Below are positions 3,001 through 6,000 of a DNA stretch of 9,353 nucleotides, piece after piece. How positions within the stretch are numbered: the first letter of the stretch is position 1; the number at the start of each line of letters is the position of its first letter. A program made the position numbers. The DNA is from a virus (Duplodnaviria > Heunggongvirae > Uroviricota > Caudoviricetes). The stretch is from IMG/VR virus record IMGVR_UViG_2534681738_000015; one strand, 5' to 3'.

Positions 3001-6000
3001 CAGTCGCTGAACAGTGGAAGGCGCGACATCAAGCGCTCTTGCCAGTTCCCTGATTCCAATATTCTGATCTTCCAGAATATCAGCAATAATTTCTCCAGGA
3101 TGAGGGGGGGTAAACATCGCCATTAGTGGTAATCCTCGTAGTTAAACGAAGCGGATCTGGAGTTTTTCCCTGTAGCACGGGCGAATTTTTTCAACGTTGC
3201 AAATGATGGCCTTATTTACACTCAATGGTTAATTCTTTCCTGTTAAATCCCTGTTCCTTTAAAATGTCTTTATATCCATTTTTACATAGGGCATTGGCTT
3301 TATCATAGCATACTCCCCATGGTGTAGCGGCACCACAGGCAATGATGTACTGTTCCTTTTCATCTCCGCGATTTATTTTCGTAGTGGTAGTGCATCCTGA
3401 TGTTGCCATGCAGAAAATTATCAAATAAAAGAACCTTGCTATGATGTTCATTATCGGATCTCTAATAGGTGCTGCAAGTGACACTATTCCCATACCTGGA
3501 GCAGTTTGTTAGTGTGGCACTTCATATGCCATGCAGATTAGTTCCGGGCGCGAATCTCAGAGCGAACCTGTGAAATGGAGTGCCCTTTGCCTAGGTTCTC
3601 ACGAATAGCGTCGAGTGGCGGCGCGGCTGAGTGTATTAACCACGCTTCCATTGCTTTGTCGCGTTCATTCAGTGCACGAAGCCCTTCACGAATAACTTCG
3701 CTTTCTGAAGCGTATGCACCGGAAGCCACACGGGCGCGCACCATGTCAGCCATTTCGTTGGTTAATGTAATGCTGAATTGTTGGGTTGTACGCATGTTAA
3801 ACCTCACTGAGTAGGATAGAACACTATTCGATGATAGCACGCCACTTGTTGACGACAACACATATCCGGGATTATATTCTTCGCACGGTCGAGTTGACCG
3901 TCGGGATTCGAACCCCGGATAGAAACCGCGACAGAGACACGCCGCGAGCGTGTTTTTTATTGTCGTATGCACGCGCACATCTGAATTATGGTGGGGCGTA
4001 TAGGGGAGCTGAAAAGCTCGCCGGTTGGTTTCCCGGTAGTTCGAACCCTGTACGTCTCACCACCCGATGATTCGAACCTAACGGTGGTGATAGTTTAGAA
4101 ACCACTCGAGGGCGTCATAATGACAACTCAAGTTTCTGTTGAAACACTCTCCACGATTACTTACAAGCAGATCCCCGTTATCACTACCGAACTTTTGGCG
4201 CACCTTTACGGCACAGAAGCTATTCGTATTCGCCAGAATCACCACGAAAACAAAGGTCGTTTCATTGAGGAAAAACACTTCTTCAAACTTGAAGGTGAAA
4301 CTTTACGTGAGTTCAAGCACAGAGTAGCTTTTAACTACTCTGTGAAAATCGCCCGTAACGTTCGCTCCCTCATCCTCTGGACAGAACGCGGCGCAGCCCG
4401 TCACGCAAAAATGCTCGAAACCGATCGGGCGTGGGAAGTGTTCGAAAAACTGGAAGACTGCTATTTCAGTCAAAAAATCCCAGAACAACTTCAGCTTCCA
4501 GAATCAACACTATCTATCAACTACCCTCTATCGTGGTTTTCAGAGCACCACCCCTACTCCATGATGAGCTATGTTGATCGAAAAACTCTTAACCTGGACG
4601 TTTCTGTACTCTTCGACATGCCAAGCCCAACCATGCGTATCCTCAACGAACTACACAGCAAGGGCTATAACGTCGATGCGGCTGTCGCTGAATTTAACGC
4701 CTTCAAACATCTGACGGAAGAAATGCGCCGCACGCTACAGGATATTTCAAGACTGTCAGATCGAAATTCCCGAAAAGGCTTCTCGTTAAGCCTGTAACTT
4801 CCCCTACCATCCCCGACATCCCGTCGGGGTTTTCATATCTGGAGACAAAAATTTGAAACAGATCGCTTTCTACAGGCGTTCTGGAAGGCCCGGTGCCTTC
4901 CGTGGGTTAAAAGAACGCGTCACCTGGATGATTCAGTCTCGTGGTCGTCCTGTTACTGGCAGTGAAATAGCAGAGAAATTTGGTGTTTCACTTTGCGAGT
5001 TCAACAAGGTAGCTCGCGGCCTGACAAAGGGCAGTAAGGTTGTGAAAATAAAGGCTTCAGAACCATTCACCACAGACACCGGAATCGTTGATCGCTTTTT
5101 CTCCCTCGAATCAAATCCTCGTCGTGACACACCTCGCTCACGCAATGCCGTTCCTCCATTCAGTCGCAGAAGCCGTGAACACGCAGCAAAAAACTGTCGC
5201 GAGGAATACGTGCAAAAGGCCGAACGCCGTCGCCGACTGATTAAAGCAGGACTTTACATTGATGAGTTTGAAAACGCGCTATGACGAAAAAATACACTCT
5301 CATTTACGCAGATCCCCCCTGGACATTCCGAGACAAAGCAACCGATGGTCAACGCGGTGCAAGTTTTAAATATCCGGTCATGAGTCTTCTGGATATCTGC
5401 CGCCTCCCGGTATGGGAACTGGCAGCCGATAATTGCCTGTTGGCTATGTGGTGGGTGCCTACACAACCACTTGAAGCATTGAAGGTTGTAGAAGCGTGGG
5501 GCTTTCGTCTGGTGACGATGAAAGGATTAACCTGGAACAAATGCGGGAAAAGACAGACCGACAAGCTGGTCATGGGTATGGGTAGCACCACTCGCGCTAA
5601 CAGCGAAGACTGCCTTTTTGCAGTGAAAGGAAATCTGCCTGAACGCATTAACGCCGGAATAATCCAGTCATTCACTGCACCGCGCCTTGATCACTCCCGC
5701 AAGCCGGATATGGCGCGAGAAAAACTTGTGCAACTTCTTGGCGATGTTCCCCGGATAGAACTGTTCGCCCGTCACACCTCGCATGGATTTGATGTCTGGG
5801 GTAACCAATGCGGAACACCATCCATTGAGATGGTTCCGGGTATTGTTAAATTTCTGGAGAAAACCAATGAGCGAAAAAACGACGTTGACAAAGGCATCAC
5901 CAGTTGAATTAAGGCAGTGCCTGGAAATCGCAAATCAACTTGCCAGAAGTGGAATACGCTTTGTTCCGATCCCGATCACAGCAGATACAGAACTTCATCT

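Follow-up and report, generated by a model that had tools for sequence, protein, structure and literature searches.

The stretch analysed here (the window) comprises 9,353 nt on one strand of IMG/VR virus record IMGVR_UViG_2534681738_000015 (Caudoviricetes), and its minus strand carries a small gene, here named X, that lies between two antitoxin genes. The 1.2 kb around X is 100% identical to the chromosomes of E. coli O157:H7 and other E. coli that make Shiga toxin (STEC) and to WG5::PA2, and it matches 45 phage records, all of them Shiga toxin (Stx)-converting and of PA2, PA8, VT2phi_272 or F765 type, genus Oslovirus. The window represents an argW Stx2a prophage of the type PA2/PA8/VT2phi_272, and the annotated region is the int-proximal early-left end of this prophage at tRNA-Arg (argW). 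On the plus strand, genes for ea22-like, DUF551, ORF6N, MT-A70 methyltransferase, DUF1382, DUF1627 and AlpA-like products together look like the early-left operon, and three minus-strand genes, higA, X and parD, are embedded antisense to it. parD is a ribbon-helix-helix (RHH) gene at 3538..3795 (minus strand, RefSeq CDS coordinates; TIGR02606, E 2e-14; PF03693), and higA is an antitoxin gene of the HigA family, type 1 (higA1), at 2818..3123 (minus strand; TIGR02607, E 5e-25). A first-pass annotation of the sequence had placed X in an antitoxin cassette, which is correct, as X lies between HigA-family and ParD-family genes on the same strand; we add that both of these genes are orphans.

An open reading frame (ORF) of 93 aa, reading MGIVSLAAPIRDPIMNIIARFFYLIIFCMATSGCTTTT...IECK, is present at 3212-3493 (minus strand), as had been annotated, but its first codon is not the start of the gene. 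The true coding sequence (CDS) extends over 3212..3451 (minus strand), encodes a 79-aa lipoprotein precursor, MNIIARFFYLIIFCMATSGC followed by TTTT...IECK, and closes with the stop codon TAA at 3212-3214. A word-indexed search found four clusters, three of them outside E. coli, and these three closest homologues are 78-79 aa long and start at the Met that matches the ATG at 3451 (MNIIARFF...). Because the homologues start there, and because the bases upstream are the relic of another gene, position 3493 is not the gene start; the 14-codon 5' extension of the 93-aa ORF (3452-3493) is an accident of a BamE-like gene relic, which is described below. The starts given in public records yield products of 65, 70, 79, 90 or 93 aa, named "hypothetical protein" in nearly all records and "lipoprotein" in VT2phi_272 only. 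Most of these five starts remove or bury the signal peptide, so that the annotation should become the 79-aa product.

Judged from its sequence, X is a real gene. It is 100% conserved across 42 complete E. coli genomes, which cover several serotypes (O157, O111, O43, O22), and across the 45 Stx phage records. In a comparison with the homologue of locus L004 (85% identical; homologous loci are given here by L numbers), the ratio of nonsynonymous to synonymous substitutions (dN/dS) was 0.19 overall, 0.11 in the mature part and 0.60 in the signal peptide, and a low value in the mature part with a higher one in the signal peptide is the pattern expected of an exported protein. X is also AT-rich, although the figures first given, about 32% GC against about 55% in parD, were wrong: GC content is 37.9% in the ORF, 37.1% in the true CDS, 52.3% in parD, 49.0% in higA and 46.7% in the window. 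The dip itself is real (z = -2.66, with 1.1% of 240-nt windows as low), the only other equally AT-rich 240-nt windows lying around 7850-8190, at the 5' end of the integrase gene and in the intergenic DNA next to the att site. GC content of the X homologue is below that of its flanks in 10 of 12 other loci.

The N terminus of X was evaluated with the PROSITE rule PS51257 (a K or R among residues 1-7; none of D, E, R or K in the six positions preceding the box; [LIVMFWSTAG]2-[LIVMFYSTAGCQ]-[AGS]-C; Cys at 15-35). The 79-aa product agrees with every part of this rule, having R6, the segment LIIFCM-AT-S-G-C and its Cys at position 20. The 93-aa and 90-aa starts were rejected, since neither has an early K or R, and the product of the 65-aa start is without a signal peptide. 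More specifically, the signal peptide (residues 1-19; 3395..3451, minus strand) has R6 in its n-region, a hydrophobic core with a mean Kyte-Doolittle value of 1.86 and the lipobox A-T-S-G. It is followed by the codon of Cys20 (3392..3394, minus strand), the predicted lipid-attachment residue, with Thr-Thr and no Asp at +2/+3.

The same signature runs through the family. In a wide alignment of 69 sequences (A1; a second alignment, A2, was used for the locus scans) the lipobox Cys is invariant (69/69), and the PS51257 pattern is found at that Cys in 66 of the 69. Position -3 is occupied by L (39), V (9), I (8), A (8) or T (2), position -1 by G (49), A (16) or S (4), and position +2 by T (43), A (12) or S (7), and never by D. 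The signal peptides diverge among homologues, yet the same character is kept. With this signature X is very likely lipidated. The first-pass annotation had described a signal-peptide-like N terminus, a TSGC motif and five cysteines in a mature part of roughly 60 aa, and this is what the product contains (...FCMATSGC and a 60-aa part); its lipoprotein call, offered as tentative, gains support as far as sequence allows from the match to PS51257 and from the Cys kept in all 69 sequences. In Lol sorting, Asp at +2 is the established avoidance signal. X has no Asp at this position and, by the +2 rule, is expected to be Lol-sorted to the outer membrane (OM).

Homologues, which the first-pass annotation had left to a search, do exist. 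An exhaustive HMMER search of 1.84 billion representatives returned 129 homologous clusters at E <= 1e-3, nearly all of 70-100 aa. X matches phrog_9924 (E 8.9e-50, profile positions 1-65 of 65) and is distantly related to phrog_5685 (E 3e-8), being thus a member of the first PHROGs family and a distant relative of the second, both of no assigned function. The profile of phrog_9924 begins at "MATSGC", which means that the signal peptide was left out when its members were called. Scans of X against Pfam, NCBIfam and PADLOC gave no match. The mature domain consists of the 59 residues after Cys20 (3215..3391, minus strand), hence of 60 aa and five Cys when Cys20 is included. In the 69-sequence alignment Cys39 is invariant, and Cys48, Cys56 and Cys78 are at least 90% conserved. 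An AlphaFold2 model built on this alignment (predicted local distance difference test, pLDDT, 87.6) consists of a signal-peptide helix followed by a beta-beta-alpha-beta-beta domain, and the predicted mature domain is probably a compact module stabilised by two disulfides. Foldseek comparison of the model with the PDB gave no useful relative (best E 0.2), a profile search of PDB sequences gave signal-peptide-level matches only (E >= 0.37), and BFVD gave a single match, an unnamed 77-aa phage "lipoprotein" (E 1.5e-4). These results show a real and fairly broad family that is uncharacterised and lacks a solved or characterised relative. Small OM lipoproteins encoded by phages are already known as a kind, and X is one of them, from an unnamed family.

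A second family of small Cys-rich lipoproteins, of phrog_5685 type and with the motif ...PDGREGY.I.CSG....WG.CY.KAG..CG.KGYD..., was found in the same analysis. Its genes are distantly related to X and often adjacent to it (L033, 4583-4879; L043, 4201-4527; L068, 3680-3967), and they look like tandem paralogues of X.

The origin of X can be followed at its two junctions. An imported cassette at 3205..3509 (minus strand) has 84.6% DNA identity by blastn to the P22-like phage contigs L004 and L005, and contains the last 16 codons of a BamE-like gene together with X. In L004, a BamE-like lipoprotein gene ends 10 nt upstream of the X homologue; in the window, its 3'-end relic (3462..3509, minus strand) reads TNCSRYGNSVTCSTY and a stop, in another frame, the L004 counterpart being ...TTNCSKYGNNVTCSTY and a stop. 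Scored against BamE (PF04355), the BamE-like protein of L004 stays under the threshold (E 3e-4), and E 4e-6 was obtained for two relatives. Upstream of the cassette lies a relic of parE (3509..3532, minus strand), made of its first five codons, MAYEV (ATG-GCA-TAT-GAA-GTG, 3532-3518), and an early stop. The sister phage ArgO145 is 98.8% identical to window positions 3519-6650 and lacks X; at the X site it has parD and then a true parE (starting MTYEVIIT; PF05016, E 4.5e-10). Directly after the X stop codon lies the frameshifted 3'-end relic of a second type of higA, higA2 (3140..3209, minus strand; PSFATLKKFARATGK / KLQIRFV and a stop), with 94% identity to the 3' end of higA in PhiR5_2 and in Shigella Stx phages that have higB-higA. 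The intact higA1 is preceded in other E. coli prophages by its own toxin gene of the RelE/ParE family, the homology ending at about window position 3145, and JNEC-KY176 has the intermediate arrangement higB2-higA2-higA1.

The minus-strand order in the window is thus parD, parE' (5 codons), bamE-like', X, higA2' and higA1. On the evidence of these relics, X has replaced both toxin genes, parE and higB, and the two flanking antitoxins are orphans because the cassette sits where those genes were. Separate acquisition of X, suggested in the first-pass annotation by GC content, is supported on stronger grounds, namely the exact junctions and the presence of parD-parE at the site in ArgO145. The X cassette is a moron that was imported, by illegitimate or short-homology recombination, from a P22-like phage (sieA/immI locus) into the toxin-antitoxin (TA) hotspot of an Oslovirus-type Stx2a prophage. 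It has the marks of a phage moron in being a discrete insert, absent from ArgO145, with defined junctions and a GC content of 37% against 47%, but not the promoter and terminator of its own. Whatever the function of X, the locus shows cleanly, and to the base, how a moron has taken the place of the toxin genes in two TA modules, and the two orphan antitoxins left behind, HigA and ParD, may themselves neutralise incoming or resident toxins and could act as anti-addiction or anti-defence factors. Natural intermediates form a series in other genomes, with higB1-higA1 in L080, higB2-higA2-higA1 in L079 and parD-parE in ArgO145 and L011.

The same junctions bear on whether X could be a toxin-like partner of the flanking RHH or helix-turn-helix proteins, in a TA-type module of a new kind (parD-X or X-higA). 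X sits exactly where parE and higB were, its size is like that of ParE and HigB toxins (about 90 aa), and RHH genes of Mnt/Arc type lie upstream of X on the same strand in six other loci. The parD-X junction is nevertheless a recombination scar with five parE codons, so that the pair did not co-evolve, and the export signal and invariant lipobox Cys would put X beyond the reach of a cytoplasmic antitoxin. X has no profile match to the ParE, RelE and HigB type II toxins and none to any PADLOC model, most family members are without an RHH neighbour, and the RHH partners are homologues of Mnt, a known lysogeny regulator. We consider a TA toxin highly improbable and rejected it on the junction scar and the export signal.

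Two hairpin-forming sequences lie near the cassette. Just downstream of higA, a GC-rich sequence of 26 nt (2793-2818; GCCGCCAGAATGACGGCGCGG) is 96% identical to a stretch downstream of the unrelated higA of PhiR5_2, and may represent a terminator common to both or mark a recombination boundary. Within the higA2 relic, in the stretch separating X from higA, the plus strand has a terminator-like hairpin with a T-run at 3169-3190; its orientation is opposite to that of the two genes, and it is probably a leftover of the donor locus or a chance match.

We then considered how X may be expressed. A sigma-70-like promoter candidate (TTGTCG-16-TATCAT with a TG extension) lies upstream of parD at 3831..3858 (minus strand), in a consensus scan that found four sites where 2.1 were expected by chance. 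The scan found no promoter-like site between parD and X, and no minus-strand terminator was found after X. The imported piece upstream of the X ATG is 58 nt long and is coding sequence in the donor type; the cassette therefore brought no promoter, which makes the parD promoter the most likely source of X transcription. The likely transcript would be parD-X(-higA), with parD as its first gene, higA1 possibly being co-transcribed downstream of X. Such a transcript would run antisense to the early-left operon, and X would hence be expressed in the lysogen; an antisense position is typical of lysogen-expressed morons.

A cassette without its own promoter and with a weak ribosome-binding site, in 2.5 kb that are a patchwork of relics with a frameshifted antirepressor-like gene, may also be read as an inert passenger, an intact yet unexpressed remnant of mosaic recombination. 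This is quite unlikely, given that the reading frame is intact and identical in the 42 genomes of several serotypes, that X follows an intact gene with a promoter-like site at a distance of 44 nt, and that purifying selection is seen between phage lineages, although it was measured for the family and not for this copy.

X homologues occupy a recurrent position in other phages. The gene order of P22 is gene 16, then sieA - orf59a - mnt, then arc - ant - 9. At six non-redundant P22-like loci (L004, L010, L021, L024, L060 and L068), the X homologue adjoins the last ejection-protein gene and is convergent with it, and the ejection-protein genes at these loci carry gp16, Inj_translocase or SLT domains; this slot is the sieA/orf59a position of P22. 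In L010, L060/61, L068 and L076/77, the last being a different phage type, a homologue of Mnt (40-54% identity to P22 Mnt) is encoded on the strand of X and upstream of it. The Mnt homologue is directly adjacent to X only in L010 (overlapping ATGA); elsewhere the gap is 38-375 nt, with another small ORF in between in L060 and L076. P22-type SieA was not present in any X locus examined. In Pseudomonas phage loci X lies beside the tape-measure gene, and 19 further IMG/VR viral contigs carry X homologues.

The occupant of this slot in P22, SieA, blocks DNA delivery by P22-like phages by acting on their ejection proteins (PMC10883804). X homologues of P22-like phages share its genomic slot, being flanked by the last ejection-protein gene on one side and by mnt or the tailspike gene on the other, on the mnt strand, but SieA is a polytopic inner-membrane protein of about 160 aa, whereas X is a 60-aa lipoprotein predicted to be in the OM, and the two are not homologous. 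In size, predicted location and gene setting X matches two superinfection-exclusion proteins, Cor of phi80/N15/HK022 and Llp of T5, which are phage OM lipoproteins of about 60-80 aa that contain Cys and are encoded by stand-alone morons near tail or DNA-delivery genes. Cor and Llp act on the OM receptor FhuA from the periplasmic side (PMC9586334). A third case is Ltp of the Streptococcus thermophilus prophage TP-J34, an exclusion lipoprotein that, as cited in PMC10883804, binds the tape-measure protein and blocks DNA injection. Some X homologues lie beside tape-measure genes, but the host of Ltp is Gram-positive and the likeness is functional only; fold comparison of X turned up no match, no direct comparison with Ltp having been made.

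Taken together, X is most likely a lysogen-expressed OM lipoprotein moron. Superinfection exclusion is the leading candidate for its function, a proposal drawn from gene position, because X homologues are placed recurrently at the P22 exclusion/immunity locus and beside DNA-delivery genes. X would reside at the periplasmic face of the OM and protect the lysogen there, most likely excluding superinfecting phages at adsorption or at DNA delivery. Its mode could, by analogy, resemble that of Cor and Llp on FhuA, of SieA at the same P22 locus or of Ltp on the tape measure. A role in superinfection exclusion or host interaction had been suggested in the first-pass annotation, and it receives circumstantial support from the homologues that follow mnt, in the slot of sieA, in P22-like phages, whereas X shows no similarity to Cor, Llp or Bor in sequence or fold (Pfam, Foldseek and BFVD comparisons), nor to solved structures. 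The reading as a whole, of a lipoprotein that is expressed in the lysogen and excludes phages, is one we hold tentatively, at a little under an even chance.

Several points weigh against it. Thr at -3 in X is allowed by the lipobox rule but rare (2 of 69), and two close homologues carry Pro or Glu at -2. The Shine-Dalgarno sequence of X is weak (AGAG, 8 nt upstream), and the promoter was called from its match to the consensus. Many family members are chromosomal with ordinary neighbours (uvrC/pgsA; a DegP-like protease and a TonB receptor), and the family may natively serve a housekeeping role and not one against phages. No publication on the X protein, and no experiment or transcript data for the gene, came up in a literature search.

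These chromosomal members suggest another explanation, in which X is an envelope or host-fitness lipoprotein, acting in stress tolerance, modulation of OM biogenesis or serum/host interaction like Bor, and carried by phages as a lysogenic-conversion gene. Lambda Bor and Iss are prophage-encoded small OM lipoproteins, expressed in the lysogen and with a host-benefit role. Members of the family occur widely on the chromosomes of Gamma-, Beta- and Alphaproteobacteria, where their neighbours are not phage genes, and the neighbourhoods of the distant homologues there show no conserved operon. X also recurs beside BamE-like and other small lipoprotein genes, suggesting an envelope module: BamE-like genes stand beside it in five loci (L004, 5538-5990; L021, 5660-6088; L034, 5001-5309; L043, 5329-5640; L074, 3931-4242), and a 48-nt relic of such a gene is kept in the window. 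These BamE-like neighbours (PF04355, best E 4e-6) are phage- or island-borne and occur in unrelated hosts, and in Buttiauxella a gene for a 130-aa lipoprotein lies beside X. Phage copies of X, on the other hand, sit precisely at exclusion/immunity loci beside DNA-delivery genes, and although X shares with Bor and Iss the type of a small prophage lipoprotein, its Cys pattern differs and it has no similarity to them and no Pfam match, to the Bor family or to any other. We regard an envelope or host-fitness role for X as somewhat unlikely.

The pairing with BamE-like genes may also hint at a target related to BAM (the beta-barrel assembly machinery). In a bolder form of the exclusion reading, the X family would be a new class of OM exclusion lipoprotein without structural precedent, one that takes the place of SieA in P22-like phages and that BamA-using Stx podoviruses have captured. 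Acting from the inner leaflet of the OM, it would block assembly of the trans-periplasmic conduit formed by ejection proteins, or else mask an essential OM machine, for example BAM, or alter it. The recurrent pairing of X with phage BamE-like lipoproteins would on this reading indicate BAM as the target. We regard this form as unlikely.

If X does exclude phages, it would provide a third, unrelated fold among the exclusion lipoproteins of Gram-negative hosts, next to Cor and Llp, and would identify the occupant of the sieA slot in many P22-like phages. It could also affect superinfection and the spread of the high-virulence argW Stx2a phages of PA2/PA8/VT2phi_272 type.

The remainder of the window shows further features of this prophage end. 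The antirepressor-like gene at 2037-2775 (plus strand; phrog_1726, E 1e-81) is broken into two overlapping ORFs, 2037-2213 and 2098-2775, and RefSeq labels it as a frameshifted pseudogene. On the other side of the cassette, upstream of the ORF6N "antirepressor" gene (4120-4797, plus strand) and divergent from the parD promoter-like site, Rfam models place an isrK RNA at 3885-3958 (plus strand; 53 bits, E 4e-10) and a C4 antisense RNA at 3984-4067 (plus strand; 70 bits, E 3e-13); this stretch is a P1-immI-like antisense control region. One idea considered for it is that ParD might behave like Mnt and repress the divergent antirepressor operon. The tRNA-like GGTTCGAA motifs at 3900-4080 were rejected as tRNAs, as they are the isrK and C4 RNAs. 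Genes within 4120-5907 (plus strand) correspond to gp7 (PNB-1, ORF6N), gp6 (PNB-2) and gp5 (MT-A70 methyltransferase) of phiPA8. These three products were reported to form an rRNA methyltransferase complex that influences Stx phage induction (PMC10810198), a study of gp5-gp7 of phiPA8 and not of gene X. The methyltransferase gene is intact in the window and split in PA2 by an insertion sequence (IS) of IS629/IS1203 type, and because it is intact the window is not the IS-disrupted PA2 form. At the far end, the argW attachment site is marked by a tRNA-Arg(CCT) gene at 8102-8176 (plus strand), past which there is a second integrase ORF, of P4 type and 339 aa (8302-9321, plus strand). This ORF appears truncated at its C terminus, which suggests that argW holds a second element, or a remnant of one, in tandem; in WG5::PA2 the tRNA is followed by dsdC in place of this ORF.

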